Assembly: GCA_039208735.1 (NCBI GenBank)
Contig: JBCCQY010000150.1
Span: 1-23,275 of the forward strand
Length of the DNA: 23,275 bases
Direction of reading: 5' to 3'
DNA from: Myxococcota bacterium
Lineage (GTDB): Bacteria > Myxococcota_A > UBA796 > GCA-2862545
Made by a program: the position numbers and the translations under genes. The notes beneath the pieces are model-generated. The model was not told the DNA's origin, did no database searches, and was given only the letters and a program-made list of their open reading frames with translations. Shown in pieces: positions 4,802 through 19,776 of this stretch (its first letter is position 1; every line of letters starts with the position of its first letter).

Positions 4802-5372
4802 GTGGGACACATGGTTTCGAAACCGTCTCGAATGTTCCATTGTGTGACATACGGAACGAAGACCACTGCCGAAGTGCGCGACGCCATGTCGGCGAAGATC
4901 GAACTTCTTCGGGCGAGGGTTGTGGAACGGGATGAACGAATGAAGCGCGTCCGTAACGAGTACCAAATCGACGCCGAAAGACTGGCCATCCTGGTGATGC
5001 GTTACCAAGAAGATACGGAGTTTGTCTCTTATGATCGGCAAGGAGCCGGCGATGACGAGACATTGATTCCCGCGGGCGTGATCAGGCTGCAGGAGCCGCA
5101 GGCGACGAAGCCTGAAGCGCGTAGGGCTGCAGGAACAAATGAACAAATGGCCTGGCACCTTGGTTCTGTGACGAAGCCCAGCGCTGATCGCCAACCTTGT
5201 GCGCGAACGGGAAATGATCGATTCGGAACGTAGTCAGATCGACAAGCTCTCCTTGGTGCTGCGGAATCTCCACGACCAGGAGCCCTACGTCGACGATCGG
5301 ACCGGTGAACTTAAATACCGGGCGTGCGTGCACGACCTCGACGATCAGGAACTCGAATACCTAGGATTCTAG
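4802..5372 (+). pseudogene. Hypothetical coiled-coil protein gene (154 aa when restored) interrupted and frameshifted by a 106-bp insertion
   Basis: GAGGAGG RBS then GTG 4802; frame reads ...DETLIPAGVI up to 5083. Deleting 5084-5189 continues in frame as ANLVREREMIDSERSQIDKLSLVLRNLHDQEPYVDDRTGELKYRACVHDLDDQELEYLGF, with TAG at 5370-5372. The ORF-track call 4802..5233 is the frameshifted product. Confidence 0.75.
5079..5189 (+). mobile_element. Miniature structured non-coding insertion element (copy A), 101 bp between TGATC direct repeats
   Basis: TGATC at 5079-83 and 5185-89; two arms, each stem-GCAGGA-hairpin-GACGA-stem (TCAGGCT/AGCCTGA; GGGCT/AGCCC inside AGCGC/GCGCT); interrupts an ORF; homologous architecture at 18867-18948. 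Confidence 0.75.
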
Positions 5373-5399
5373 TTCGCCTTCAGTATCGGCCCACCAAGC

Positions 5400-6449
5400 T
5401 CACGCTTCATCGTAGCTTGGCGAAAAGATGATGATGCTCTCGCCTAGCCCGTAGCGCAATGCAAACGTGTCGAGGCGCGCCAGCGAGCCTGCGTTGAGCA
5501 CCGTGCCCCGGGCCAGGAGGAGTCGTCCTGCATTGTCTTTCAGGTCGGCCGCGAGTCGCATGCCGGTTTCGAGTTTGCTAATTGGAATCTCGATGGTCGG
5601 TGACGGTTCAGAGAGGTACGCGAGCAACGCCCGGACGTGTTCACGAGGGTGCAGCGCCGCGCAGTAGGCCACGGCAGTCTGGGCGGAGTCCCCAAGCTCT
5701 CGGCGGGCCAAGAAATCTCGAGCCATGGCGACGGTGCGCACCACCCACACGTCGCTCTGTTGGCTGCGGATGGCGTCTGCAATCTCTTCGAGGCGTGGAA
5801 TTTCAGCCACCAGGTTGGCCGAGATCTCGATGCCGCGACGAGAGGTCCAACGCTCTGCCAAGGGGCCCCCAATGGCGAGCATGCCCAGGGGCGCGAGCAG
5901 CGCCGTCGCTTCGATTTCCCAGGTGACAGGAACGCCCGCGCCCCTAGCCACTCCAACGACCACATCACGGAGTTGCTGGCTACGGCCACCGACCTCGGGG
6001 TCAACCATGGCTAGGACTTGCCGCAGCACGCGTAGGCTGCCCATCAACGTGCGCTCGAGAAGCTCCTGTTCTGCGTTGCGAAGGCGAGCCCATTCTTCGG
6101 CGTCGCGAACCGCGGTGAACAGGGCGTTCTGACCCGTTGGCTTGATGAGGAAGCGAAACACGCCGCCTCCGTTCACCAGGTTCATCATGTCCTTCAGGTC
6201 TGCCTGGCCCGACAACAAAATGCCGACCGTCTTGGGGTGCCGTTCCTTCATTTGATTGAGGAACGTGGCCCCGTCCATCCGCGGCATGCGCATGTCGGAG
6301 ATCACAATGTCGAAGGCGGTTTCTTCCGCCGCCTCGAGACCCTCTTGGCCGCTGGATGCGACCTGGACGGCGAATTCCCTTCGTAAGGTTCGCCGCAGGC
6401 CAGCCAGGATGTTGGGTTCGTCGTCCACGCAGAGGATCGAGGTCTTCAT
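5400..6449 (-). CDS. Response regulator (receiver domain + degenerate HD-GYP-like helical output domain)
   Basis: MKTSILCVDDEPN...IVISDMRMPRMDG...ILLSGQAD...FLIKP receiver motifs. The C-terminal region resembles RpfG-type regulators but has no HD or GYP motif. Start moved from 6512 to ATG 6449. Confidence 0.85.
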   Translation of the reverse strand: MKTSILCVDDEPNILAGLRRTLRREFAVQVASSGQEGLEAAEETAFDIVISDMRMPRMDGATFLNQMKERHPKTVGILLSGQADLKDMMNLVNGGGVFRFLIKPTGQNALFTAVRDAEEWARLRNAEQELLERTLMGSLRVLRQVLAMVDPEVGGRSQQLRDVVVGVARGAGVPVTWEIEATALLAPLGMLAIGGPLAERWTSRRGIEISANLVAEIPRLEEIADAIRSQQSDVWVVRTVAMARDFLARRELGDSAQTAVAYCAALHPREHVRALLAYLSEPSPTIEIPISKLETGMRLAADLKDNAGRLLLARGTVLNAGSLARLDTFALRYGLGESIIIFSPSYDEA

Positions 6450-6527
6450 AGGTCGCGCATCGGTTCGATGGCGCGGGTGTTTCACCTGGATCTGATCCGA
6501 TGGAGTCCGCAAAGTTCCCTAAGGTGG

Positions 6528-7688
6528 ATGAGCAAGCAAGCCCTCGAACACCAGCTTCGCAAAACCAAGGAACGAATTCGGATGGCGCAGGTCTTCGATG
6601 CGAAGATGCGCGAGATCGACCTGGCCCATCGGGCGCAGCAGCAGCCTAAGCCTCCCCATCAACGAACTGGCTGGCCCCACGCTGAAGTGAAGCCTCGAGA
6701 ACGTGAGCGCCGATCCGAGAAGGCGAACATGAACATTCTTCTCGTTGATGATGAGCCCCATATTCTCTCGGCTTACCGGCGTTCGCTCCGGCGCTTCCGG
6801 CATTGGGACTGCCGCTATGAAAGTGGTGGCGAAGCCGCCCTCGGTGCCATCGCCGAGGGGCAGGTCGACGTCATCGTGACCGACATGCGCATGCCGGGGG
6901 TCGGTGGGCTCGACGTGTTGCGGTCGGTCCAGTTGAACCACCCAGAGATCGTGCGCCTGGTGCTGTCGGGCTACGCCGAGGACGAGTTGCTGGTGGGCAC
7001 CGAGAACCTCGCGCACCGTTACCTGCACAAGCCGTACCCGTGTCCCGACCTCATCGAGCTGCTCGCGGAACTTGAGACGGCGATCGCTGGCCTGGGCGTT
7101 CGCGACTTACGATCCATTGTGGGCGGGGGCGACCGCTTGCCTACCCCCCCCGAGTTGTTTCCCAAGCTCCTTGGTGGGCTGGCCCAAGGCGAGTTCGAAA
7201 AGGTGGTCGAACTCATCGAGTCGGATGTGGGCCTTGCCACGCTCATCCTTCGCATTGTGAACTCCGGCTTTTACGGCGTTCCTCGAGTTGTCGTGTCGAT
7301 TCGAGAGGCCACCACGATGCTCGGCATTCGGGTGCTGAACCACGTGGTTTCGTTGTGGGCCATGGGTACGGCGATGGCGGTCGCGCCTGAACGGGTGCGC
7401 GACCTGAGTGCGCGAGGCATCGCAGTGGCAGAAGCGATTCGAGCCCAGCACCCCGATGACCACACCGCGATCAGTGCTGCATTGGTGAGTGGTGCGGGTC
7501 CGATGGTGATCGAGGCATTCGGCTTGAACGACGACCCCGATAAAGTGGCAGCGGCCTTTCTGTTGCTGTGGGGGGGCCCGCTGTCGATCGTCTGTACGCT
7601 CGACGGTGTTCGACGCGAAGAACCCACGGGAAGTGCAGCGGTGTTGCGAGAGGCCCGAACGCTCGTCGATCAGAGCAGGTCGCAGTAG
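6528..7688 (+). CDS. Response regulator with HDOD domain
   Basis: NILLVDDEPH...IVTDMRMPGVGG...LSGYAE...YLHKP receiver; LPTPP...IESDVGLATLILRIVNSGFYG...SIREATTMLG HDOD signature. Start is uncertain (ATG 6528 or ATG 6729). Confidence 0.85.
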   Translation: MSKQALEHQLRKTKERIRMAQVFDAKMREIDLAHRAQQQPKPPHQRTGWPHAEVKPRERERRSEKANMNILLVDDEPHILSAYRRSLRRFRHWDCRYESGGEAALGAIAEGQVDVIVTDMRMPGVGGLDVLRSVQLNHPEIVRLVLSGYAEDELLVGTENLAHRYLHKPYPCPDLIELLAELETAIAGLGVRDLRSIVGGGDRLPTPPELFPKLLGGLAQGEFEKVVELIESDVGLATLILRIVNSGFYGVPRVVVSIREATTMLGIRVLNHVVSLWAMGTAMAVAPERVRDLSARGIAVAEAIRAQHPDDHTAISAALVSGAGPMVIEAFGLNDDPDKVAAAFLLLWGGPLSIVCTLDGVRREEPTGSAAVLREARTLVDQSRSQ

Positions 7689-8221
7689 TCCAGCGGATCA
7701 GCGTACAGCACGAAGTCTCGTTGCTCGGTCACGCCCGTCCCAGAGTCCACGTCTGTCGCCGTCACCTCGACCTCAAACGTCTCCCCGTCGAGCGAGCAGA
7801 GGAATTCGAGGTTGGTTTGCGGCGTGGGATCGTGGTCATCGAGAAACGCTCGAACGCCTGCGAACGTGCTCGTGCACTCATCGACCGCTTCCGCATCGAC
7901 GTAGGTGACCGACTGGTCACCTGCGATGCGGAGGCCATCGCTTTTCCGTGTGACGACCGGCGCAATGGCAAGCCACGTGCCTGTGGTGCTCGCAAGCCCG
8001 CTGATGTCGATGTGCCAGCCCCCTTGGGCCCCGTGCACCATGGTGATGGAATCGCCATTGGTCAGGGGCCGGTGCACGTCGAACCCGCTGCCGAGTTCGA
8101 ACGTCATCGGACCACAGCGATCCTCCACGATCGTGCCCGTGTCCTCCCTCGAGGGGGACGGAGCATCGTCAGCGACCGGAGCATTGGTGCAGGCCATCGA
8201 CCACAACAGCGCGATCATCAT
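7670..8221 (-). CDS. Hypothetical lipoprotein
   Basis: MMIALLWSMAC signal/lipobox; HGAQGGWHI motif that I associate with myxobacterial lipoproteins; ATGA coupling to the upstream gene. Confidence 0.75.
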   Translation of the reverse strand: MMIALLWSMACTNAPVADDAPSPSREDTGTIVEDRCGPMTFELGSGFDVHRPLTNGDSITMVHGAQGGWHIDISGLASTTGTWLAIAPVVTRKSDGLRIAGDQSVTYVDAEAVDECTSTFAGVRAFLDDHDPTPQTNLEFLCSLDGETFEVEVTATDVDSGTGVTEQRDFVLYADPLDYCDLL

Positions 8222-9636
8222 TCGTCAGGACCCTCGATGTCTTCGCCGAGTTCCAGCGTACGCACGTAGACGTCCTGCGTGCCATCCCGATCATCGGTCC
8301 ACGCGAAGATCGCGGTGCGACCAAGCACGACCAGGTTCAGGTCCTCGCGGATGGCTTCACCATTAGGGCCCGCGTCGGCGCGGAAGTCGCGCTCCTGAAA
8401 CGCCCCGTCGGCGCCCATGAAGTTGTAGTAGATGTTGTTGAAGATTTGGCTGCGGCCGTTCTGGATCGCGAGCCGGTCGTCCAACCAGGCCACCACAGGG
8501 CCATCGGCGCCCACGGCAAGCTGCGGCCGGAGTGCCACGGCGGCGCCGGGGCCCTCGCCGCGGTCGACCCGCACGTCTTCGTCTCCCATGGGGGTGCCGT
8601 TCTCAAGCGTGCGGAAGTGCAAGTCCGCGCCCCCCGAGCGCTCGTCGATCCAGACGGTATGGACCGCTGCGCCATCACTGATGCAGCGGGGAGCCTGGCT
8701 GGTGTTGAACCCGGGATTGTCGGACTCGAGGGTGCCCGGCGTCGCCGCCCACTGACGTCCGTCGATCGAGGCGTTGAACAAGATGTCGTCGCCCTCGCCG
8801 TTCCGGGCGTCTGACCACACCGTGACCCCACCGCGGTCCGTGGCACACACCTGGGGGCCTAGCGAGAGGTGCTGACCAGGGTCGTCTCCCCGATCGAGGC
8901 GGGTTTCGATGGGGGCCTGGAAGGTGGCGCCTCCGGTGGAGCTTCCTTGCAGGTAGATGTCGGATCCCCCGTTGCGAGTATCTTCCCACGCCACCCAAAG
9001 GGCGTTCGGGCCAATGGCCAAGGCGGGCTGGCCCGAGAAGGCTTCGCCGAGCTGGTCTGAACCGAGGCGTGACGGAGTGGCGTACGACATGCCAAGGTCC
9101 GCACTGCGGCTGAACAAGATGTCGTACGCGCCGTAGCGGTCGTCGGCCCAGGCCACGCCTACAAGGTCCCCGTTGATGGCAATCACGGGGTCCTGCGCGT
9201 TCGAAAACGCCTGCGGGTCGTTGTCGACGAGTACGTCTTCTTCGGCAAACGTTCCGTCGCCGACCAGTGCATTGGCGTAGACATTGGTGTGGCCGATGTC
9301 GCTGTTGCGATCGTCCAGCCATACGGCCACGACCCCGTCGTCCGAACACGCCACGGCGGGCTCCGAAACGACGCCATTGCCGTGGCTCACCCGCGTCGGA
9401 ACCTCAAACCACGTGTCTCCGAGGTTGTCGGAGCGCGTCATCCATAGGTCGGCAAGGTTGGGCCCACGTCGATCATCGACCCAAAACACAAAGACCGTAC
9501 CGGACTCTGTGGCACACATTCGCGTGGAATGGCTGTCGACCCCCAGCGTGTCGTCGGCGCCATCCAGTCGAATGTCGTCGTCGAGAACCTGATTGGAATC
9601 CGGTGAGCACCCTAGCAGCAGGGTTGTGAGCAACAT
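8218..9636 (-). CDS. Lipoprotein with BNR/Asp-box beta-propeller (sialidase-like fold)
   Basis: GGGAGG RBS then MLLTTLLLGC lipobox at 9636; repeated blades (WxDxR...DI/L) and Asp-boxes SDNLGDTW, SADLGMSY, SSTGGATF, SIDGRQW. The ORF-track extension to 10830 is antisense shadow. Confidence 0.8.
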   Translation of the reverse strand: MLLTTLLLGCSPDSNQVLDDDIRLDGADDTLGVDSHSTRMCATESGTVFVFWVDDRRGPNLADLWMTRSDNLGDTWFEVPTRVSHGNGVVSEPAVACSDDGVVAVWLDDRNSDIGHTNVYANALVGDGTFAEEDVLVDNDPQAFSNAQDPVIAINGDLVGVAWADDRYGAYDILFSRSADLGMSYATPSRLGSDQLGEAFSGQPALAIGPNALWVAWEDTRNGGSDIYLQGSSTGGATFQAPIETRLDRGDDPGQHLSLGPQVCATDRGGVTVWSDARNGEGDDILFNASIDGRQWAATPGTLESDNPGFNTSQAPRCISDGAAVHTVWIDERSGGADLHFRTLENGTPMGDEDVRVDRGEGPGAAVALRPQLAVGADGPVVAWLDDRLAIQNGRSQIFNNIYYNFMGADGAFQERDFRADAGPNGEAIREDLNLVVLGRTAIFAWTDDRDGTQDVYVRTLELGEDIEGPDE

Positions 9637-9732
9637 GCGACCTCCCTCGCCCCGAGCATGCCCGATGACCCGCGCGAGTGTCGCGTCGACGGATCGTTCA
9701 TGGGCCAGGCATACTGCGGCGGGAGGTTGCAG

Positions 9733-11511
9733 ATGGTGTGGTGGGGTGTGGTTGCGTTGGTTGCAGGACAAGCCCAAGCCGCGGATCTCGAAACCTGGAT
9801 CATCGCGTGGGCGACCGAACTCGATGGGGATCGGGGGTCCGATGGCCGTGACGAAGTGCTCGATCTCGCCATTGACCAAACGCAGCACGTGACGGTGACG
9901 GGCTTTGTGGATGGGGACCCCGGCGAGGGGCGTACAGGCTTGTTGGCGACGTTCGAGCGAAATGATGGCTCGGTGCTCTGGAATATCCGTGAGGAGGCGG
10001 GCGTGTTGCCCAACGCCACCGACGACGTGCTCACCGCGGTGGACTTTGCACCAGGGAGCAACGATTTGGCGTGGTGCGGTCAACTTGCCGGCATCGACAG
10101 CCCCAAACCCACCGATCCGCGGACGGCCTACCATGTTGACGCCCGTGAGCCCGACAAGTTCGGCATTCACTACGAGTCGATGCCGCTGTGGAATGAAGCG
10201 TTTGAGGTGGTTCCCGGTTCGATGGGTGACCAGGCGTGTCGCGGGCTTGATCGCGCTGGATTGACCTTGTTCACCACCGGCGATGCCGCCACGCCGGAGG
10301 GCGGTCGTCAATGGATCACGCGCATCTACAACGCGACCACGGGTGACGTCCAAGACGGGGGGACGTTTGCGTTGCCAGACCCCGCTGCGGTCGAGCGCGG
10401 CGAGGCGATCGCGGGGGATGCGGCTACCGGGAACTTCGTCGTGGTGGGTTCTTCGGCCTTGCCGAACGCGAATTCCAGCGCCGTTATCCGCTTCATGGAG
10501 GCCGGTGGCACGCAACGCTGGTCGGATCGCATCGCGAGTCCCGGTGACGGACCGGCCCGTTTTCACGACGTGGTCTACGACGTCACGCGAGGGTTGGTGG
10601 CCGCCGTAGGGACGGTGCAGCGAGGGAACGAGGCTGCGTCCGACATCCAAGGGATCGTGCGGGTTTATGCCGCGGCCGGAGCCAACGGTGAGCCCGCGGT
10701 GCAGCTCGAACTCGAACTCGGCAGTGCGGCCGGCGATGACTACGCGACCTCGGTGGCTTTCGATCAGAGTGGTCGGTTGGTGGTGGGGGGCAGCGTCGCG
10801 GATGCCACCACGGGCATCGAACGGTGGCAAGTCCTACGGCTGTCCGAGACCACGGGGGCGGTCGAAGGCGATTGGGAAGGCCCCGTGACGTCTGGGCATT
10901 CGCGGATTCAGGCGTTGGCGCAACGCGATGAAGTCCTCGTGGTCGGGGGCTTTGTGGACCGCGGAAACACCGTCGATGCGGCGGTGACGATGCTCGGTCC
11001 TGACCGTGATGGCGACGCCACGGCCGACATCGCGGATCAGTGTCCTGACGATCCCAACAAGATTCTGCAGGGCGTGTGTGACTGTGGCACGCCCGATGAA
11101 GATCGAGATGGGGACGACTTCGAGGACTGTATCGATCGCTGTCCTGACGACCCCAACAAGACCACCCGGATGGGGGAGTGCGGATGTGGGGTTCCCGACG
11201 ATGACACTGACAACGACGGCATCCTCGACTGTCTAGAGACGTGTCCGAACGACCCCAACAAGGTGGAGCCGGGGGCGTGTGGCTGTGACGTGCAGGACAT
11301 CGACCGGGATCGCGACGGCGTCGCGGACTGCAACGACGCGTGTGAAGCCACACCAGATGGTGCCGAAGTGGGAACGGACGGGTGTGAAGCTCGTGGTGCC
11401 GGATGTGGATGCCAAAGCGTTACACCGATTTCGGCACTGTTGGCGCCACTGTGCCTCATCTTGATCAGCGTTACGCGACGGCGTCATGGACAGACAAACC
11501 GAAACATTTGA
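9733..11511 (+). CDS. Secreted surface protein: beta-propeller + thrombospondin type-3-like Ca-binding repeats + MYXO-CTERM-like anchor
   Basis: GGGAGG RBS at 9721; signal peptide MVWWGVVALVAGQAQA; DxDxDG/CPDDPNK repeats; C-terminus GCGCQS-hydrophobic-RRR. Confidence 0.8.
   Translation: MVWWGVVALVAGQAQAADLETWIIAWATELDGDRGSDGRDEVLDLAIDQTQHVTVTGFVDGDPGEGRTGLLATFERNDGSVLWNIREEAGVLPNATDDVLTAVDFAPGSNDLAWCGQLAGIDSPKPTDPRTAYHVDAREPDKFGIHYESMPLWNEAFEVVPGSMGDQACRGLDRAGLTLFTTGDAATPEGGRQWITRIYNATTGDVQDGGTFALPDPAAVERGEAIAGDAATGNFVVVGSSALPNANSSAVIRFMEAGGTQRWSDRIASPGDGPARFHDVVYDVTRGLVAAVGTVQRGNEAASDIQGIVRVYAAAGANGEPAVQLELELGSAAGDDYATSVAFDQSGRLVVGGSVADATTGIERWQVLRLSETTGAVEGDWEGPVTSGHSRIQALAQRDEVLVVGGFVDRGNTVDAAVTMLGPDRDGDATADIADQCPDDPNKILQGVCDCGTPDEDRDGDDFEDCIDRCPDDPNKTTRMGECGCGVPDDDTDNDGILDCLETCPNDPNKVEPGACGCDVQDIDRDRDGVADCNDACEATPDGAEVGTDGCEARGAGCGCQSVTPISALLAPLCLILISVTRRRHGQTNRNI
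11041..11345 (+). repeat. Three coding tandem repeats (99-102 bp period) encoding CP[DN]DPNK..GxCxC..DxDxDG
   Basis: TGTCCTGACGATCCCAACAAG (11041), TGTCCTGACGACCCCAACAAG (11140), TGTCCGAACGACCCCAACAAG (11242). Confidence 0.8.
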
Positions 11512-11588
11512 TTGACGCTTCGGTCTTCGGGCGGGCATCGTCCTCGCGTTGGAGATCGTTTCTGGGGCACGACGTCAAAGGAGGAAGC

Positions 11589-12530
11589 ATGCGAGGAACA
11601 CTGTTCGCTGCACTGGTCCTGATGGGTTGCAATGAGCCTTCGATCGGTGGTGATGGGGATCGCGAGTACGACATTCGCGAACTCGAGCGTACGCGTGATC
11701 AGGTGACGGATAGCTTCGAGCAGCCGCCGCCCACGTCGGCCGACGTGCTGTTTGTCATCAGCAACTGGTGGTCGGATGGCCAGCTTCGTCAGGAGCTGAT
11801 CGACAGCTTCGACGACCTGCTCAACGTCTTCTTGGGAAGCGGCATCGACTACCACATCGGTGTCATCTCGACCGACACCGACCACTTCCACGAGAACGGC
11901 AAGCTCCACGAAGCCGATGGGGTTCGTTGGATCGACCCCGAGACGCCGAACCCGCTTGAGACCTTCGCGACGATGGCGTCGATGGATGCGCAGGGTTGTG
12001 TGGGCCCCCGTCGTCCCCGCGATGCCACCTGGCTGGCCCTCGAAGTTGAAGAAGACTCCTGGAACGCAGGCTTCCGTCGTGACGACGCGTCGCTGCACAC
12101 CGTGTTTGTGAGCGATGCGGGCGACGAATCGTACCGGTTGTCGGTCGACGAGTTCATTCGCTGGTACGACGGTTACACCGCGACGCCCGAGGTCGACACC
12201 CTTTCGACGATCATCGACCCCCTTCGCGACAACGAAAATCCCTATGTCACCACCATGGTCGGTGGCGCTACGCACCACATCGATGACCGTCCCTGGCGCA
12301 ACGTGCTCCTCGAGATCGGCCTGCGTGCGCAGGTCCTGAACCAGGAGTTCATGCTGTCGGCGGTACCCGTGCTCGACACCATCGTCGTCGAAATCTCGCA
12401 CCACGAACAGACGCAGCGTCTGTCGCTGGGTGATGATTTCACCTACAGCGAGAGCCGCAACTCGGTGCAGCTCGTCGACTACCAGCCGCCCACCGGCGCG
12501 TCGATCGACATCAGCTACGATCGCCGCTGA
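11589..12530 (+). CDS. VWA-like lipoprotein with degenerate MIDAS
   Basis: GGAGGA RBS; MRGTLFAALVLMGC lipobox; DVLFVISNWWSD, YHIGVISTD, GFRRDDASLHTVFVSD and a C-terminal FTYSESRNSV...PPTGASIDISY module typical of myxobacterial VWA lipoproteins. Confidence 0.72.
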   Translation: MRGTLFAALVLMGCNEPSIGGDGDREYDIRELERTRDQVTDSFEQPPPTSADVLFVISNWWSDGQLRQELIDSFDDLLNVFLGSGIDYHIGVISTDTDHFHENGKLHEADGVRWIDPETPNPLETFATMASMDAQGCVGPRRPRDATWLALEVEEDSWNAGFRRDDASLHTVFVSDAGDESYRLSVDEFIRWYDGYTATPEVDTLSTIIDPLRDNENPYVTTMVGGATHHIDDRPWRNVLLEIGLRAQVLNQEFMLSAVPVLDTIVVEISHHEQTQRLSLGDDFTYSESRNSVQLVDYQPPTGASIDISYDRR

Positions 12531-12543
12531 GCGGTTCTGAGCG

Positions 12544-13200
12544 CTACTCGGTGAGCAAGGCCTCGATCGCCTCGTCGAATTCGGCGATCGTGCCATTGCC
12601 ACCAGCGAAGAAGCGGATGTACCCGAACTGGTCCACCACGTAGGTCATGGGCGTCGGGATGGTCCCTCCGCGAGACCACGCTTTCTTCGCTTCGCCAGAG
12701 ACATCGCTCACCACCGGGTGGGTGATGGTGAACTGGCTCGTCCAGGCCTCGATGTCGTCGGTGGTGGGGGTGTCACCAAAGACGTCTTCGTGAATCAAGG
12801 TGATGACCTCGACCGGATCGTCGGCACGTTCGACCGAGTACTCCTGGAACTCTGGCGCAGCCTGACGACACGTGCCACACCACATCGTGACGAACTCAAG
12901 CAGCACGATCTGCCCTTCGTAGTCCGCCAGGCGAATCATCGTGCCGTCGGCGGCAGGGAGTTCGAAGCCCGGCGTGCACATGTTGGCATCGACCCCTCGG
13001 ATCGCCTCGGAGTCCTTGCTGCAGGGCACCGGATCGGGTTCGGGCTTGGGATCGGGGTCCGGGTCCGGGTCGGGGTTGATGTTCGTGGATGGGTCAGGAT
13101 TGGGGATAGGCGTCGTGTTCTCGGTTTCCCGAATGTCGGGCTCAGTGCAGCCAAACGCGAGACCGAGAAGGGCGAGCGCCATCGAGGATGGGTTCCGCAT
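12544..13200 (-). CDS. Redoxin (TlpA/AhpC-TSA-like) thiol-disulfide oxidoreductase lipoprotein
   Basis: GGAGG RBS; LAFGC lipobox; Pro/Asp linker; FELPAADGTMIRLADYEGQIVLLEFVTMWCGTC (CxxC); PTPMTYVVDQFG. Confidence 0.85.
   Translation of the reverse strand: MRNPSSMALALLGLAFGCTEPDIRETENTTPIPNPDPSTNINPDPDPDPDPKPEPDPVPCSKDSEAIRGVDANMCTPGFELPAADGTMIRLADYEGQIVLLEFVTMWCGTCRQAAPEFQEYSVERADDPVEVITLIHEDVFGDTPTTDDIEAWTSQFTITHPVVSDVSGEAKKAWSRGGTIPTPMTYVVDQFGYIRFFAGGNGTIAEFDEAIEALLTE
13030..13077 (-). repeat. Hexamer microsatellite-like tract encoding an NPDPDPDPDPKPEPDP linker
   Basis: Repeated (T/G)CCGGG-like units inside the redoxin CDS. Confidence 0.7.
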
Positions 13201-13245
13201 CGCTTCCTCCAGCCCCTCCACTATGGCGCCGGGTTCGGCGAACCG

Positions 13246-14262
13246 CTACGGCGAACCCAGCTCGTGGCCTTTCGAGCCAGTCCCGAGCTGATCGAGCAAC
13301 GCTTGCCAAGTCTGTCTTTCGTGCTCCAGCGTGAATCGAGGGGCCAGCGCGCGGACGGACCTTTCGAGTTCAGCGAGGGTCGAACGGTCGGATTCTAGTC
13401 GTAAGAGCCAGGTACGTAAGGCCTCTTCGTCGCCTACGGGAAAGGTCGCGGGCCACTGCCTGCCCAACAGTCCCAGATTCCCGTCAATCTCGCTCGCGAC
13501 GATGGGGGTCCCGGCGGCAATCGCTTCTGACACGACGTTTGCACCGCCCTCAGCCCGTGAACTCACCACCAGCACTCGGGCGCGGGCCAGGTGATCCTGA
13601 ACGGTTGGCGCGTCCACTCCGCCCAGCCAGCGAAATCGTGGGTTCTCGGAAGCCTCGGTGCGGGCCCTTCGCTCCCACGTCTCATCGAGCGCATCACCGA
13701 GCAACGTCACCCGGATCTGTGACGTTTCGGGGAGCCGGCGAACGGCCATGGCAGCTCGCAACGGATCTTTGACGTCTCGGAGGTGCGCGATCACCAACAC
13801 GTCGAAGACGTCCGACGAGGCCGGCTTGCGGCCGACAGTGGGCGCGGATTGATGGATGACATGGAGCTTCGGACGAAATTCCTCGGGGAGGGCCTGGGCG
13901 AGTCGATCGTGAAGTCCCACCAAAGCATCGGCCATCGCCATGGAGGCCCGTGTCGGTTCGGGGTCGCGTTCGAGGTAGTCGTAGACGTCCGTGCCGGTCA
14001 GCGCGACGATCAGAAGTCGTTTTGGATGTTGGCTTCGGAATGCAGCGATCGACGCACGGCTTCGCCAGGCGTGGAGGGCGACCATCGCATCGCATGGCGT
14101 GCCGTCCCATTCCGTGTCGATGCCGACGTCGTGGCCGAGCGCCCCGAGCAGTTCGGCCCATCGGTGGGCGGTGGTGCGGTTGCCCGCTTTCGAGTCCGGC
14201 AAGGCCGGGGTAATGACCTGAATCGTCCGGGACCCGCCCCGTGGGAGGCTTGCCTTTGCCAT
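13246..14262 (-). CDS. senB: Selenosugar synthase SenB-type glycosyltransferase (GT-B fold)
   Basis: Family motifs ITPA...GNRTTAHRW, ALHAWRS, LTGTDVY, HLRDVKDP, SRAEGGANVVSEA, GNLGLLG; adjacent to a SenA-like gene; RBS-like GGAG..GAGGG before ATG 14262. Confidence 0.88.
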   Translation of the reverse strand: MAKASLPRGGSRTIQVITPALPDSKAGNRTTAHRWAELLGALGHDVGIDTEWDGTPCDAMVALHAWRSRASIAAFRSQHPKRLLIVALTGTDVYDYLERDPEPTRASMAMADALVGLHDRLAQALPEEFRPKLHVIHQSAPTVGRKPASSDVFDVLVIAHLRDVKDPLRAAMAVRRLPETSQIRVTLLGDALDETWERRARTEASENPRFRWLGGVDAPTVQDHLARARVLVVSSRAEGGANVVSEAIAAGTPIVASEIDGNLGLLGRQWPATFPVGDEEALRTWLLRLESDRSTLAELERSVRALAPRFTLEHERQTWQALLDQLGTGSKGHELGSP

Positions 14263-14279
14263 TGCCCTCAACTCCCCGC

Positions 14280-15578
14280 ATGCCTGCCGAGGAGCTTATC
14301 GCCTGGATGCGGAGCGCTCGGGACCGCACGCTGCAGATCTGCGCGATCGTGCGGGGCGAAGAACTCTTGGGACCGATGCTCCCCATCGTGAATCCGTTTC
14401 TGTGGGAAGTGGGCCACGTGGGGTGGTTCTACGAGCGATTCGCGTTGCGTCTGCTCGATGGTCGGCCCTGGATCCTTGGCAACTCGGAACAGCTCTACAA
14501 CTCAAGCGCGATTCCTCACGATGTGCGCTGGGGACTCCCTCTGCCCGATCTGGATGCGACCCTGGGCTACCTGGAGCGCGTCCAGCAGGCGATGGAAGAG
14601 CGGCTCACGTCCGACCTGGCGAGTGAGGCCGACACCTACCACACGCTGCTCACCTTGTTTCACGAGGACATGCACGGCGAGTCGTTTGCGTGGAATCGGC
14701 AGACCCACGGTTGGGCGATGCCGCAACCGGAACTCGAGCAGGTTGGCGGAGGACCTTGCCCCGGTGACGTCGAGGTGCCTGGTTGCATCCACGCGCTAGG
14801 ATCGGTGAACGACGGCACCCAGTTTGTCTTCGACAACCAGAAGTGGGCGCACGATGTCGTGGTCAAGCCCTTCCAGATTGCGCGAGCCCCGGTGACCAAC
14901 GAGGCGTTCGCGGCGTTTGTCGATGACGGCGGCTACCGAGAGCGGCGATGGTGGTCCGAAGCAGGGTGGCGCTGGCGCGCTCAAGCCGAGGCGAACCACC
15001 CTGTGTACTGGACCCAGGACCCGTCCGGGTGGTTCGTGCGCCTTTACGACCGGGTGCTTCCATTGCCCGCTCATCAGCCGGTGGTTCACGTTGCTTGGTA
15101 CGAGGCCGAGGCCTATTGCCGGTGGGCGGGCCGTCGGTTGCCCACCGAAGCCGAGTGGGAAGTGGCCGCTTCGCGGGTTCCGACGTCCAACGGTGAACTC
15201 GCTCCCGGGAAGCGTCGGTTCCCTTGGGGAGGCACGCCCCCCGTTGCAGAGCAGGCGAACCTCGATGCGCGGCACTTGGGTTGTGTCGAGGTAGGCGCGT
15301 TTGCGGGGGCCGACAGCCCGCTTGGATGCCGCCAAATGATCGGAAACGTGTGGGAGTGGACCCAGACGCCCTTTGCGCCGTTCCCGGGGTTCAGCCCAGA
15401 TTCATACGCCGACTACAGCGTGCCGTGGTTCGAGGATGGGCGAAAGGTCCTGCGGGGCGGCTGCTGGACCACCCGTAGTCGCATGATCGACAACGAATAT
15501 CGCAACTACTTTACGCCCGACCGGCGCGACATCTTCGCGGGATTTCGAACCTGTGCCGTGGAGGAGGCCTCGGTTTGA
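14280..15578 (+). CDS. senA: Selenoneine synthase SenA-type non-heme iron enzyme (EgtB family: DinB + FGE-sulfatase domains)
   Basis: VNPFLWEVGHVGWFYE and FHEDMHGE (3-His iron site), YNSSAIPHDVRW, FVFDNQKWAH, RRLPTEAEWE, GNVWEW, DYSVPWF, YRNYFTPDRRDIFAGFRTC. The senB neighbour favours SenA over EgtB. Confidence 0.85.
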   Translation: MPAEELIAWMRSARDRTLQICAIVRGEELLGPMLPIVNPFLWEVGHVGWFYERFALRLLDGRPWILGNSEQLYNSSAIPHDVRWGLPLPDLDATLGYLERVQQAMEERLTSDLASEADTYHTLLTLFHEDMHGESFAWNRQTHGWAMPQPELEQVGGGPCPGDVEVPGCIHALGSVNDGTQFVFDNQKWAHDVVVKPFQIARAPVTNEAFAAFVDDGGYRERRWWSEAGWRWRAQAEANHPVYWTQDPSGWFVRLYDRVLPLPAHQPVVHVAWYEAEAYCRWAGRRLPTEAEWEVAASRVPTSNGELAPGKRRFPWGGTPPVAEQANLDARHLGCVEVGAFAGADSPLGCRQMIGNVWEWTQTPFAPFPGFSPDSYADYSVPWFEDGRKVLRGGCWTTRSRMIDNEYRNYFTPDRRDIFAGFRTCAVEEASV

Positions 15579-15627
15579 CATGCACCAAGAGGCATGGATG
15601 GCGTAGGCTCGCGTGGGGGAGACAGAC

Positions 15628-16473
15628 GTGGTGATGATTTTCGCTTGGGTTGCGTGCACCGCCAGCGTGCCAGACGATGCGCCGCCGCCGCTTCGGTTCT
15701 CAGCCATTCCAGACCACGACACCACGCTGCTCAAGCAGCGGTTCGACCCTTTTGCGCGCCACCTCGAAGCGCAGCTGGGCGTTCCCGTCGAGTACGTTCC
15801 GGCCACCGACTACCTCGCCGCGGTCGAGATGTTCAAGAACGGTGACGTCCAGCTCGCGTGGTTTGGGGGACTCACCGGGGTGCAGGCGCGTCGGGCGGTT
15901 CCGAAGGCCCGCGCCATTGCGCAAGGCGTTGAAGATCAGGCCTTCCGGTCGCACTTCATTGTCCATCGCTCGGTCGACATCGAGGCGAACGAGGACTTCC
16001 CCGCCGGACTCAAGGGCCGGACCTTCACCTTCGGAGCCCCTGCGTCGACCTCGGGTCGCCTCATGCCTGAGCACTTCATCCGGGAGCATACGGGCTTGGC
16101 CCCCGACGCGTTCTTTGCGTCGCCGGTCGGATTTTCCGGAGCCCACGACAAAACGGCGCGACTCGTGGCGAGCGGGCAAGTCAACGCTGGCGTGCTCAAC
16201 TACCAGACCTGGGATGCATTAGCGGCAAAAGGCGAGGTGGAAGGCGCTAAGATCGTTTGGACGACCCCAACCTACGCCGACTACAACTTCACCGCCCACC
16301 CCGACCTTGAACGCTACGGCGACGGCTTTACGGCGCGCCTGCAGAAGGTGCTGACGGACCTGCGCGAACCTGCACTGCTCGGGGCGTTGAGCCGTTCCCA
16401 GCTCATTTCTGCCTCCAACGAGGACTTCGCGGCCATTGAGCGCGTGGCCATGTCGCTCGACATGGTGAGATAG
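15628..16473 (+). CDS. PhnD-family ABC substrate-binding lipoprotein, putative selenate/selenium-compound type
   Basis: FSAIPD, QLAWFGGLTGVQAR, FTFGAPASTSGRLMP, FSGAHDKT, WTTPTYADYNFT motifs of the selenium-associated PhnD-like subfamily; Cys lipobox. Start at GTG 15628, GTG 15631 or ATG 15634. Confidence 0.82.
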   Translation: MVMIFAWVACTASVPDDAPPPLRFSAIPDHDTTLLKQRFDPFARHLEAQLGVPVEYVPATDYLAAVEMFKNGDVQLAWFGGLTGVQARRAVPKARAIAQGVEDQAFRSHFIVHRSVDIEANEDFPAGLKGRTFTFGAPASTSGRLMPEHFIREHTGLAPDAFFASPVGFSGAHDKTARLVASGQVNAGVLNYQTWDALAAKGEVEGAKIVWTTPTYADYNFTAHPDLERYGDGFTARLQKVLTDLREPALLGALSRSQLISASNEDFAAIERVAMSLDMVR

Positions 16474-17213
16474 TGTTCGCCCTCGAGGACGTTGGCGTGC
16501 GCTATGCGAACACGGTGGCGCTAACCGGGATTTCGCTTCGACTGGCGCCCCGCGAAGTGGTGGGACTCATCGGTCCTAGCGGGGCGGGTAAGACCACGTT
16601 GCTTGGGCTGCTCAATGGCACGGTGCAAGCGAGCGAAGGCCAGGTGACGGTCGATGGGGCGGTCGTGGCGAGCCTGCGACCGCATGCGCTGCGGAACCTG
16701 CGGGCCAGCATCGGGGTCATTCCGCAGCAATTCGACTTGGTGCCCGCTCTCAACGCAGCGCAGAACGTCCTGCTCGGCCAACTCGGGCGTCAGGGGTGGT
16801 GGGGAGGGGTGCGGGCCCTCGTGGCCCCTCGACGCGCAGACCTTGAGGCGGTTCATGCCCTGTTGGGACGCCTGGGCATTGGCGACAAGCTGTTTCATCC
16901 AACCGATTCGTTGTCGGGTGGAGAGCAACAGCGGGTGGCCATCGCTCGAGCGCTGTTCCAGGAACCACGCGCCTTGCTGGCCGATGAACCCGTGGCGAGC
17001 GTCGATCCGGTGAGGGCGCGCGAGGTCCTCGACCTGTTGCGTGTCGTAGCCGAGCAAGCAGGCGCGACCTTGGTGATCAGCCTGCACGATCTCGCGTTGG
17101 CGCGCACCTTGCCCCGACTGATCGGCCTGCGCAACGGCACGGTGGCGTTCGACGGTGCACCCGACCAGTTGGATGACCCAGCGGCCGAGGCGCTGTACCG
17201 GCCGTCCGCGTGA
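16473..17213 (+). CDS. PhnC-like ABC transporter ATP-binding protein
   Basis: Walker A GPSGAGKT, LSGGEQQRVAIAR, Walker B LLADEP, SLH; 1-nt overlap with the binding-protein stop. Confidence 0.92.
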   Translation: MFALEDVGVRYANTVALTGISLRLAPREVVGLIGPSGAGKTTLLGLLNGTVQASEGQVTVDGAVVASLRPHALRNLRASIGVIPQQFDLVPALNAAQNVLLGQLGRQGWWGGVRALVAPRRADLEAVHALLGRLGIGDKLFHPTDSLSGGEQQRVAIARALFQEPRALLADEPVASVDPVRAREVLDLLRVVAEQAGATLVISLHDLALARTLPRLIGLRNGTVAFDGAPDQLDDPAAEALYRPSA

Positions 17214-17986
17214 CGCGATTGCGCTGGTGGGGCCTTGCGTTGGGAGCCGTGGTCGCCGCGGGATTTCTCGGTCTCGACCCTCGCGAACTGTGGCCGAACA
17301 CGCCAGGTCTCCTGGCCGAGATGGTCTACGCGGCCGTCACGCCGGCTCTCGTCGATGAAGCAACGGGAACCGTGCCCTTGCTGCCGGTGGTGGGCGAAGC
17401 CGCGCTCATGACGGTGGCCATCGCCGCCGCGGCCTTTGGCATCGCGCTGCTGGTGGCCGTACCCTTGGGTGCGCTGGCTTCCACGCGATTCAGCGGCGGA
17501 GGCGCCACCTGGGTGGTGGTGCGAGGCCTCATCGCGGCGATGCGGTCGGTGCACGAACTGCTCTGGGCCATCCTGTTGCTAGCCGCATTGGGGCTGTCGA
17601 CGGGGAGCGCGGTGTTGGCGCTGGCCATTCCCTCGGCGGGCACGCTCGCCCGGGTGTTCGGGGACTTGCTCGATGAGACTCCCGAAAACGGTTCTCGGGC
17701 CTTGCGTTCCACGGGCGCATCCGAACTTCAGGCCCTGGTGTTTGGTGTGGTGCCTCGGGCCATGCCCAACCTCATCGCCTACGCGTTGTACCGCTTTGAA
17801 TGCGCGGTCCGATCCTCGGCGGTGCTAGGGTTCTTCGGCTTTCCGACCCTCGGGTACGGCATCGCGAGTTCGGTCGACGCGGTCCACTTCCATGAAACCT
17901 GGACCTACCTCTATGCCCTGTTCGCCCTTGTCGTCGGGCTGGAGCGCTGGAGTGCAGGGGTTCGCCGACGGTGGGTGCGCACATGA
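17210..17986 (+). CDS. PhnE-like ABC permease
   Basis: Hydrophobic; RSVHELLWA, EAA-like loop ALRSTGAS, YRFECAVRSSAVLGFFG; GTGA overlap. Confidence 0.88.
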   Translation: MTRLRWWGLALGAVVAAGFLGLDPRELWPNTPGLLAEMVYAAVTPALVDEATGTVPLLPVVGEAALMTVAIAAAAFGIALLVAVPLGALASTRFSGGGATWVVVRGLIAAMRSVHELLWAILLLAALGLSTGSAVLALAIPSAGTLARVFGDLLDETPENGSRALRSTGASELQALVFGVVPRAMPNLIAYALYRFECAVRSSAVLGFFGFPTLGYGIASSVDAVHFHETWTYLYALFALVVGLERWSAGVRRRWVRT

Positions 17987-18837
17987 CGCTCGACGAACTG
18001 CGCCGCAATCGGCCCAGGGATCCCTTCCTTCAGGTCTCCGCGATGGCCTTTGTGGCGCTCATCGTGGGATCGTGGCTGTTCGTGGACTTCGATTGGCCCG
18101 AGCCCGGCCGAGCGTGGCGAAACCTCCTGCGGTTCGCCGAGGAGAGCCGCCCGACCCTGACGTTTGCCTGGTGGGCGCAGACCGTCCGCTTCGATGTGGT
18201 CGCGAACACCGTGGCTCTCGCGGTGGTGGGCACGGCCCTGGCGACGGTGGGAGGCGCGCTTTCGGTCCCCGGCGCTTCGCGCAAACTCACCGAGCCCACG
18301 CCTTGGTTGCCCGACGACCGGCCTTGGGCGCGCGCCTTTGGCGGCCTGTTGCGGGGGGCGGTCCGGCTGGGGCTCGTCTTCTTACGGGCGATTCCCGAGT
18401 ACGTGTGGGCCTTCTTGCTCGTTGCGCTCTGGGGGTTGTCGCCTTGGCCTGCGGTGCTCGCGCTGGGGCTGCACAACGGGGGCATTCTCGGCAAGTTGTT
18501 CACCGAGACCGTCGATGACCTCGAACCCGCCGCACCACGAGCCCTTGCCGCATTGGGGGCCGGGCGTTTCGCCATCGCCACCGCAGGGGTGCTGCCGCAG
18601 GTTCAACGGCGCTGGTTGCTCTACGTCTTTGTTCGCTGGGAGAGCTGCATTCGTGAAGCCACGGTGGTCGGCCTCGTAGGCGTCGTGTCCATCGGCTGGG
18701 CGATCCGCGAAGCGCGGGCTCGGACCCACTACGACGAGATGGTTGCCTTGATGCTCGTCAGCGCCTTGCTCATCGTGGGAGCCGATGCGCTTTCGCTCTG
18801 GTTGCGGTCGCGCGGCCGAAGTCGGTGGCAGAGATGA
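17983..18837 (+). CDS. PhnE-like ABC permease (second subunit)
   Basis: RAIPEYVWA, GILGKLFTETVD, RWESCIREATVVGLVG; ATGA overlap at 17983-17986. Confidence 0.88.
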   Translation: MTLDELRRNRPRDPFLQVSAMAFVALIVGSWLFVDFDWPEPGRAWRNLLRFAEESRPTLTFAWWAQTVRFDVVANTVALAVVGTALATVGGALSVPGASRKLTEPTPWLPDDRPWARAFGGLLRGAVRLGLVFLRAIPEYVWAFLLVALWGLSPWPAVLALGLHNGGILGKLFTETVDDLEPAAPRALAALGAGRFAIATAGVLPQVQRRWLLYVFVRWESCIREATVVGLVGVVSIGWAIREARARTHYDEMVALMLVSALLIVGADALSLWLRSRGRSRWQR

Positions 18838-18872
18838 TCCGGTTGCAGGCTCGAAAGGACGAAGGCTGATCA
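18835..18872 (+). repeat. Single-arm, degenerate copy (C) of the TGATC-bounded hairpin element
   Basis: TGATC-CGGTT-GCAGG-CTCGAAAG-GACGA-AGGC-TGATCA; same core motif with an imperfect outer stem. Confidence 0.6.
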
Positions 18873-18948
18873 CCGCTGGCCTTCGGCGCTACGCGCCTGC
18901 AGGCTCACGCGGTCAGCTTTCGTCGCTCACGCTCCTGCAAGCTGATCA
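18867..18948 (-). mobile_element. Miniature structured element (copy B), two-arm, between TGATCA repeats 76 bp apart
   Basis: Minus strand: TGATC-AGCTT-GCAGGA-GC(GTGA)GC-GACGA-AAGCT-GA-CCGC-GTGA-GCCT-GCAGG-CGC(GTA)GCG-CCGA-AGGC-CA-GCGG-TGATCA; colinear with copy A, with covarying stems. Confidence 0.7.
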
Positions 18949-19776
18949 CCGGATCTCCATGGTGAATCCATCCCAGACGACGCCACCGCGAGCGTCCACC
19001 ACGACGACCCAGCCCTCCACCACACCGGGCTCGGACGGTGCCGTGAACTGCGTCGTGGCTCTTCCGTCAGCCAGTTCGACGCGCGACTGCGACAACCCAC
19101 CGGCCGTGGTGTAGAACGAGGCCGTCAAGGTCTCGATTCGGTCGAACAAGGCCGATTCTTCGGCCACGTAGACGACGTAGGGCTCGGCATCTTCGGGAGC
19201 CGTTCGCACCCCGAGGGTCACCGTTTCCCCGACACCGAGGCGTTCCGGCACCAACAGGGCCTCGATGGTGGGGTGTTCGTTTTCGACGTAGCGGTCCTCA
19301 AACGCATCGAAGATGACCCTGGTCGCTCCTGACAAATCGCATCGAATGCGTTGAAAGCCAAAGGCGCGCGCGGCTTCCGTGGCGGCTTGGTAGGGCAGGA
19401 AGTACCCACCTGTCGGGTCGGGGTCGGCGGGGCGGCGGGGCGGTTCGTCGCCTTCGACGGGGGGAGGGTTGGGGCCGAAGCGTGCGCACGCGTCGCCCGG
19501 AATCACGGTCGCGGCGGTCACCGAAACCAACGCGTCGCCTTGGGCGCAGGCTGCCGTGACTGCGGTGCGCTCATCGACCGTGCGCGGCTCTTCACAGTAG
19601 GACCACTGCACCGAGGAAGGCATGGGTTCCTCGGGCGACACGGCGAGCGCCTCGAGCGTGATGGGCGCATTGGGGCGGGCCTCGGCGGGAAGGCCTCGCA
19701 CGGCGAGGATTCGAGGTTCATCGACTCGTCCCGCCCGATCCTCGAAGGTCGGCAGGCATCCGATGAGCCAGATCAT
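18946..19776 (-). CDS. Hypothetical lipoprotein accompanying the TonB-dependent receptor
   Basis: MIWLIGC lipobox at 19776 (TGATG overlap); PRILAVRGLPAEARP N-terminal and WVVVVDARGGVVW C-terminal motifs; Cys-rich middle. Confidence 0.75.
   Translation of the reverse strand: MIWLIGCLPTFEDRAGRVDEPRILAVRGLPAEARPNAPITLEALAVSPEEPMPSSVQWSYCEEPRTVDERTAVTAACAQGDALVSVTAATVIPGDACARFGPNPPPVEGDEPPRRPADPDPTGGYFLPYQAATEAARAFGFQRIRCDLSGATRVIFDAFEDRYVENEHPTIEALLVPERLGVGETVTLGVRTAPEDAEPYVVYVAEESALFDRIETLTASFYTTAGGLSQSRVELADGRATTQFTAPSEPGVVEGWVVVVDARGGVVWDGFTMEIR

Follow-up and report, generated by a model that had tools for sequence, protein, structure and literature searches.

A family of short mobile units, here termed cassettes, was characterised from a 23,275-nucleotide stretch of DNA (the window; contig JBCCQY010000150.1 of assembly GCA_039208735.1) from an uncultured marine bacterium of the Myxococcota, the genome of which (G000) is 9.4 Mb in 288 contigs, 64% GC and 92.7% complete. 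Each unit consists of one or two folded arms between halves of the hexamer TGATCA, and each insertion, at a TGATCA-like site, lengthens the DNA by the cassette body plus one hexamer. The element is real and recently active. In the reading that we favour, and hold to be somewhat better than an even prospect, it is a non-autonomous element resembling repetitive extragenic palindromes (REPs) and bacterial interspersed mosaic elements (BIMEs), with an HUH enzyme like the REP-associated tyrosine transposases (RAYT) moving it in the form of folded single-stranded DNA. This reading draws on the copy number and lineage restriction of the family, empty sites, the census of cassette junctions, the GNA and GNNA loops of the arms and covariation of their stems. 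A first-pass annotation of the window had proposed a site-specific, non-autonomous miniature element, and this was upheld by the empty sites and by the lack of a transposase among the 30 of 125 open reading frames (ORFs) of the window that were scanned; mobilisation would be in trans, as that annotation also supposed.

Cassettes in the window and in the source genome

Both copies that the first-pass annotation had described, A and B, were found where it placed them, together with their stems, their TGATC ends and five TGCAGG...CGAA arms (5088, 5128 and 18844 on the plus strand, 18939 and 18901 on the minus strand). The search pattern offered with them matched three times in the window, as opposed to 0.04 matches expected from 100 shuffles. 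A third, degenerate cassette accounts for both the third match and the fifth arm, and has the TGATCA at 18867-18872 in common with copy B. A covariance model of the arm recovered four of the five window arms and missed the long-loop arm at 5128, while Rfam covariance models gave no match in the window at E 1. The features concerned are as follows.

5079..5190 (+): copy A, a two-arm cassette of type M2 with a 100-bp body, running from TGATCA to TGATCG; net gain 106 bp
5082..5115 (+): arm 1 of copy A, with a 7-bp closing stem, a GCAG-GA core and a GCA mini-hairpin
5116..5187 (+): arm 2 of copy A, with an outer GCGC stem, GTAG at 5121-5124 and a GGCT/AGCC stem
4802..5372 (+): conserved gene of unknown function, split by copy A, with a frameshift at the PAG-VI-ANLV codons
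18867..18948 (-): copy B, a two-arm cassette of type M1, flanked by two TGATCA
18913..18945 (-): first arm of copy B, which has a GTGA loop and the tandem GA form
18876..18907 (-): second arm of copy B, with a GTA loop and the core of the first arm in its Watson-Crick form
18835..18872 (+): degenerate single-arm cassette, tail to tail with copy B; covariance model E 9e-4
18835..18837 (+): TGA of the array's left hexamer, which is the stop codon of an ABC-transporter permease gene (17971-18837)
18946..18948 (-): TGA of the array's right hexamer, which is the stop codon of a convergent ORF (18946-19944)

Copy A is not intergenic and sits within the conserved 154-aa gene at 4802-5372. Its second arm has a GCAGGA...GACGA core that encloses a long AT-rich insert. 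Two details of the initial description were revised. The target, given as TGATC or TGATCA, is the palindromic hexamer TGATCA and not merely TGATC, the sixth base being supplied by the target (G at 5190). Similarly, the reported lack of terminal inverted repeats held for two-arm cassettes (4-6 bp only) and failed for single-arm units, which carry self-complementary ends of 7 bp, TCAG..CTGA.

The family is multi-copy, with about 90 loci and 94 classified cassettes in G000, in agreement with the expectation of further copies. A motif scan noted at least two motif types at 72 loci among 92 candidates, blastn retained 90 of 123 loci at E<1e-3, and the covariance model identified 127 arms, with 150 candidates scored. 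When classes were assigned by alignment to three reference bodies, long cassettes comprised 35 of M1, the commonest, 19 of M3 and 5 of M2, and short forms or fragments comprised 18, 13 and 4, respectively; arm 1 of copy A also stands alone as a short cassette, M2s (4 copies). The GCAGG core is missing from M3, which is made of GCAAGC-(G/A)NA-GCTTGC hairpins, so what all members have in common is the hexamer ends and the mini-hairpins.

Cassettes were joined to each other by an exact TGATCA at 22 of 26 junctions, of which 12 were tail to tail and 7 head to head (19 inverted) and 7 tandem, the last class being in deficit (p 0.03). Inverted pairs differed between loci, and at about ten loci M1-like units stood in tandem arrays, separated by other spacers. 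A palindromic hexamer regenerated at each end allows a later unit to insert at an earlier one in either orientation, and mosaics are built up in this way. In long cassettes, the sequence that separates the arms has the appearance of a decayed hexamer, and the long two-arm cassettes therefore look like fossil dimers. As a short imperfect palindrome spread in many copies over the genome, and as mosaic clusters with inverted heterodimers and tandem amplification, the family shows two of the features of REPs and BIMEs. Its commonest units, by contrast, are head-to-tail two-arm cassettes and single arms, not inverted REP doublets. The tandem arrays carry bits of flanking DNA and in this respect resemble REPIN clusters, as portrayed in the available excerpt of their description (PMC3116915).

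Several other features of this DNA were noted. Head-to-head divergent response-regulator genes with HD/HDOD-type output domains lie at 5400-6512 (-) and 6468-7688 (+) of the window. Elsewhere in G000, one CRISPR-like array (C57:16283-18590) has 31 copies of one repeat at a period of about 73 bp, and a second CRISPR-like repeat occurs in 22 copies over C104, C111, C120 and C206; both are unrelated to the cassettes.

Insertion sites in the source genome and a sister genome

Empty counterparts of filled sites were present among relatives of the gene split by copy A, among homologs of an AAA protein and in a paralog on contig C214, and indicate that the element has moved. Thus, removal in silico of copy A with one hexamer restored an ORF, three intact relatives of its gene (153-155 aa) read uninterrupted across the site, and the target before insertion was TGATCG. 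In the AAA protein, a 63-bp M3 cassette accounted for exactly 21 extra residues relative to 10 of 10 aligned homologs, and this 21-residue peptide was absent from all 119 homologs of that protein. M3 lies in frame, in the same strand and frame, in four ORFs, the homolog comparison covering the AAA protein. In the C214 paralog, one TGATCA takes the place of the two-cassette array of the filled copy, and for a repeat-protein gene on C172 alignment with paralogs, at about 70%, spans the junction. For two interrupted genes, the closest homologs that bear a name were labelled Myxococcota. Contig C214 also contains many internal repeats of 80-200 bp and a duplicated gene that bears the cassette array in one of its copies. 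On C1 (116669-116736), what appears to be an amidase signal peptide contains an M3 cassette, in frame and on the opposite strand, which reads as a hydrophobic stretch.

Contigs of a relative strain from two runs, X2 (from another study) and X3, bear the same cassettes; none of the 15 joints shown, out of 34 in these runs, skipped copy A or B, and one X3 contig that aligns to the window only from 5185 onward was uninterpretable. The permease ortholog of the same-genus genome G002 has no cassette but was rejected as an empty allele given its different neighbour and 53% identity.

Targets reconstructed for the 36 arrays with near-perfect hexamers at both ends were TGATCA in 23 cases, with an outer-base difference in 11 and an inner difference in 2. 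Mismatches at cassette ends, counted by hexamer position, were 7, 6, 0, 4, 0 and 3 of 52 at the 5' end and 0, 0, 0, 2, 0 and 6 of 29 at the 3' end, which places the crossover inside the hexamer at a position that these counts do not fix. Surviving cassettes occupied stop codons or intergenic DNA, or lay in frame within proteins. By our own codon model, which has limited sensitivity, 34 of 110 outer ends started on the stop codon of a coding-like ORF as opposed to 59 of 3200 background sides. Such ends were more frequent where the structured strand was the sense strand (21/66 vs 5/59, p 0.003; for M1 alone, 16/37 vs 1/29).

The family is almost restricted to its lineage. The exact start motif occurred 33 times in G000 and once across 40 relatives, in a match without an arm, and the arm core occurred 84 times in G000 and once across 400 genomes of the phylum, without the closing stem. 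At the level of the order, with 48 candidates scored per genome, the covariance model had matches in 25 of 149 genomes, mostly single and weak. Among four genomes of the same genus, 38 arms were found in G003 and 6 in G001, with none in G002 or G004. The full TCAG-arm-CTGA pattern had no match in the viral or metagenome collections searched. Two side observations concern these genomes: a long degenerate tandem array in G003 (L339, contig C354), with units of about 51 bp containing TGCAG...CGAA, is probably a coding repeat, and a locus in a record titled Enterobacteriaceae (L096) shares its sequence with one of G001 (L309), the record title probably being wrong.

The arms of G003 constitute a sister family (39 matches) that retains TGCAG...CGAA, has a shorter hairpin and is joined at GAATTC instead of TGATCA. 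Read by eye, outer 5' ends kept the final TTC in 9 of 11 cases while the first three bases varied, and outer 3' ends continued with TTC in only 1 of 10; in addition, central bases were unlike between the two ends of single insertions. Although the numbers are small and the copies decayed, these ends argue for a cut near the middle of the hexamer, and the variation of the target-side half at both ends, which argues against a true target duplication, supports the REP/BIME-like reading.

These ends also bear on a classical miniature inverted-repeat transposable element (MITE), for which a DDE cut-and-paste transposase would duplicate a GATC or TGATC(A) target and the fold would be secondary. The direct repeats at both ends of cassettes, the TGATC on either side of the copy A insertion and the 7-bp inverted ends of single-arm units would all suit such an element. 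Nevertheless, inverted ends measure just 4-5 bp in the two commonest cassettes as opposed to the 15-30 bp of MITEs, the internal non-canonical cores are much more conserved than the ends, and a variant hexamer base at one end does not reappear at the other in G003 or in G000, even though the hexamer is repeated in the latter. We consider this origin improbable. An origin by repair at restriction sites was dropped since TGATCA is not avoided in G000 (frequency ratio 1.08) and the central mismatches of G003 do not fit capture by sticky ends.

The folded arm and the search for its enzyme

The fold rests on covariation and not on folding energy. Among 105 arms found by their core alone, with no stem filter, 97 paired at 4-5 of 5 stem positions, and seven fully paired stem types were represented. 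Two core positions switched together between A/A and C/C in 104 of the 105, which we interpret as an exchange of tandem G.A pairs for G-C pairs, in keeping with the general properties of sheared pairs. Among 49 distinct arms from G000 and elsewhere, in an alignment that was pre-filtered for paired stems and that holds related rather than independent copies, compensatory changes on both sides occurred at four stem pairs. Shuffled and slid controls were exceeded in every measure but one, the number of pairs with a double change (39/500 shuffles). Conservation of the fold, as first proposed from copies A and B, was thereby borne out. Copy B had folding z values of -2.6 as DNA and -3.7 as RNA whereas those of copy A were only -1.0 and -2.1, and the fold first drawn for copy A was not recovered as DNA.

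The order of the core is GCAG, two bases, a stem-loop and a three-base tail. The form GCAG-GA-stem-loop-GAC was noted in 56 of 109 arms and a GC/GCC form in 45 more, and the tetramer GCAG, positioned within the outer stem, was present in 102. Loops were GNA in 74 and GNNA in 20 of the 105 arms (94/105), including the non-GNRA loops GTCA and GCCA. According to the available part of one report, GCGNAGC and GCGNNAGC are DNA mini-hairpin sequences that are less stable as RNA (PMC13037366), and the match of the arm loops to these sequences favours single-stranded DNA over RNA.

This last result is relevant to the possibility that the cassettes are RNA elements of mRNA 3' ends with a role in stability or termination, which recombination or reverse transcription would have dispersed and selection retained. 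The enrichment of outer ends on stop codons and the sense bias of the structured strand there would be expected of such elements, copy B folds well as RNA, and the related Reyranella-type arms described below occupy fixed gene ends at low copy. However, three-base GNA loops predominate and non-GNRA loops are common among those of four bases, some insertions break genes, and reverse transcriptase genes are unlinked to cassettes. The sense bias would also be expected if the displaced non-template DNA strand were the target. An RNA element thus appears quite unlikely.

For a REP/BIME-like element, a pathway of movement can be proposed. The arm would fold on one DNA strand, with a GNA or GNNA mini-hairpin on tandem G.A or G-C pairs and a bulged GCAG/CGA, and would be bound by an HUH enzyme of the Y1 family (RAYT/TnpA-REP-like) that is encoded elsewhere, lost or unassembled. 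This enzyme may nick within the hexamer at both cassette ends, most likely near its centre, and release a single-stranded circle with TGATCA again at its junction. The circle would then exchange strands with another TGATCA, and run-on copying from the nick could yield tandem arrays. In support of a Y1 enzyme, inverted GAGC-GNA/GNNA-GCGAC mini-hairpins flank Y1-family genes in two other genomes (L306:1100-2800 and L298:1340-2050), the hairpin foot in L306 being GTAC and not GTAG.

Several results weigh against this proposal, the main one, as regards filing the family as REPs, being the missing enzyme. No Y1 or RAYT gene was found in G000 with Pfam, NCBIfam or a profile of 39 Y1 cores in six frames, which for a genome 92.7% complete is no proof of absence; the same searches revealed no autonomous IS200/IS605 parent with TnpA and the same ends. 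G003 has two Y1-like genes, neither flanked by arms, and among 47 + 30 Y1 loci from related genomes there was no convincing arm, the best being one intragenic and one partial. The circle and excision steps are inferred, not observed. In isolated arm-2 feet (n=38), GTAG occurred 9 times and GTCG 16 times, so that the canonical GT[AG]G does not appear to be conserved, and cassette orientation showed no bias relative to local GC skew, which is a weak proxy. The target is a six-base palindrome conserved on both sides of the cut, as opposed to the less strict C|T or C|A of TnpA-REP, and the limits of the 49-arm alignment count here as well. The two Y1-like genes of G003 (L417, L418) are divergent and have C-terminal extensions and flanking repeats of their own, unrelated to cassettes.

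No transposase was noted beside any copy examined. When 40 of 194 ORFs near 20 loci of G000 and 49 of 86 ORFs near G001 and G003 loci were compared with Pfam, only unrelated cellular families were detected. Genes between close cassette pairs were likewise unrelated cellular genes, and ORFs between 10 such pairs, read by eye, had no recombinase motif. IS91-type fragments and reverse transcriptases are present in G000 but unlinked to cassettes.

Conservative site-specific recombination at a palindromic core would account for the same junctions by means of a tyrosine recombinase on folded single-stranded DNA, as with integron attC sites, a serine recombinase that exploits the central AT, or an enzyme of the IS110 type. 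The exact gain of body plus one hexamer, junctions in all three orientations and the central AT in the palindromes of both sister families agree with such a mechanism. IS110 elements can also mobilise non-coding modules alone, according to the available part of a preprint (bioRxiv 10.1101/2025.01.17.633520), and G000 has matches to IS110 (4), tyrosine recombinases (8) and resolvases (2). None of these genes, however, has a cassette or arm within 1.5 kb, the central bases that differ between ends in G003 would be forbidden by a matched core, and the arm core is common to REP-type repeats. Recombination of this kind is therefore rather unlikely. The resolvases were separately rejected as movers, being ordinary enzymes found in the three arm-bearing genomes and absent from two others (80-82% complete).

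Comparison with known systems

The arm core is not new and recurs in REP-like repeats of unrelated bacteria. It was noted in a Bacillaceae-type repeat and in inverted dimers with CGTC/TGTC-type or GTAG ends, the former in L104, L105, L107, L113 and L143, as well as in Reyranella-type elements at gene ends, which have covarying closing stems and low copy number. A closing stem accompanied 50 of 51 metagenome matches to the core, a proportion in part fixed by the search pattern. Rfam models gave no match at gathering score for the arms of 15 outside loci. Reuse of the arm in myxobacteria-like, alphaproteobacterial and Bacillus-type repeats suggests a shared protein recogniser.

The Bacillaceae/Planococcaceae repeat (L060, L065-L071 and many of L060-L174) is an abundant intergenic unit of about 110 bp for which neither an Rfam match at gathering score nor, in a single literature search, a description was found. 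Reyranella-type elements (L092, L100, L127, L137, L139, L196-L246) have nested covarying stems around the arm and 1-2 exact copies per genome, recurring at orthologous loci and fixed gene ends; one 32-mer type (L206) agrees with an arm variant of G000 at all but loop or foot bases.

A literature search returned no description of the TGATCA cassette family. What is new is that the palindromic hexamer at the junction is also the target, that several cassette types stack freely, that the hexamer has been switched in the sister genome and that one 21-residue peptide has been inserted in frame repeatedly, a single repeat placing the same insert in four proteins. It is conceivable, though doubtful, that these features mark a distinct class of self-stacking single-stranded DNA cassettes, with joined ends that spell their own palindromic target, an enzyme that belongs to none of the RAYT, Ssn and recombinase families searched for and a target re-programmed between sister species. 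If so, they would represent a natural, retargetable, orientation-free and scar-regenerating insertion system with an arm core kept across targets. How REPs and BIMEs spread, where they are cut and how mosaics are built are still open questions, for which this family offers clean boundaries: a defined six-base target, empty sites, known unit ends, all orientations and a sister family with another target. Once the enzyme is known, cut site, role of the fold and choice of target become directly testable.

Comparisons with published systems refer to the available excerpts of the papers cited. Like Rickettsia palindromic elements, the cassettes insert in frame into proteins (PMC3733652), here as the 63-bp M3 in four ORFs; they differ in lacking a CGTC tag, in sequence and in having a fixed hexamer target. 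Like the ends of IS200/IS605 elements and their non-autonomous derivatives, they would involve recognition of a single-stranded hairpin and a short-motif target (PMC6006769; PMC8266576), and targeting of that type also proceeds with no true duplication (PMC6006769; PMC8266576). Unlike them, they have the same motif at both ends, occur in any orientation and lack a detectable parent IS or TnpA. With CGTC REPs and the NTS-SRM repeats of Ssn GIY-YIG nucleases (PMC11893778), they share the presence of the arm core inside inverted-dimer repeats elsewhere. In contrast with NTS-SRM, the degenerate SRM motif fit 0 of 90 cassette loci in G000, and GIY-YIG matches occurred only in long frames (831 and 986 aa in G000, with no short stand-alone gene and no arms nearby; one match each in G001-G004).

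Likeness was closest to REP-type DNA, and the initial view that the element matched no REP type was not borne out: the core layout fits that of GTAG-1/2 REPs, REP-type dimers elsewhere share the core, and the arrays are BIME-like. As with REPINs, miniature mobile units of REP-like arms form ordered tandem clusters with flanking DNA (PMC3116915) and insert beside existing copies (PMC3116915), whereas REPINs are inverted doublets and cassettes spread as single arms or head-to-tail two-arm units. The systems compared for GTAG REPs and BIMEs were RAYT/TnpA-REP group 2 of E. coli and group 3 of Pseudomonas, Stenotrophomonas and Marinomonas. GTAG-1/2 REPs consist of a tag, two bases, a stem-loop and a three-base tail, with a degenerate GYAG tag (PMC3733652), and Marinomonas group-3 REPs have the same layout (PMC3733652; PMC8266576). 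The substrates of TnpA-REP are folded single strands, which it cleaves on either the 5' or the 3' side of the hairpin, and it also joins strands (PMC8266576). Shared with these REPs and BIMEs are imperfect hairpins of 20-40 nt, one structured strand and the order of tag, stem-loop and three-base tail (PMC3733652; PMC8266576), as well as heterodimer mosaics, tandem clusters and stop codons supplied by the ends (PMC3733652; PMC8266576), a likeness that rests on described layout and not on the consensus sequences of those families. The GCAG of the cassettes fits the degenerate GYAG tag but, unlike the tag of GTAG REPs, lies in the outer stem (PMC3733652). The cassettes are further set apart by a conserved palindromic hexamer that both delimits them and is their target, and by the lack of a tnpA-REP gene in the assembly. 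On the best reading, therefore, the family is a variant of REP/BIME-like DNA, rather than a proven member of the REPs.

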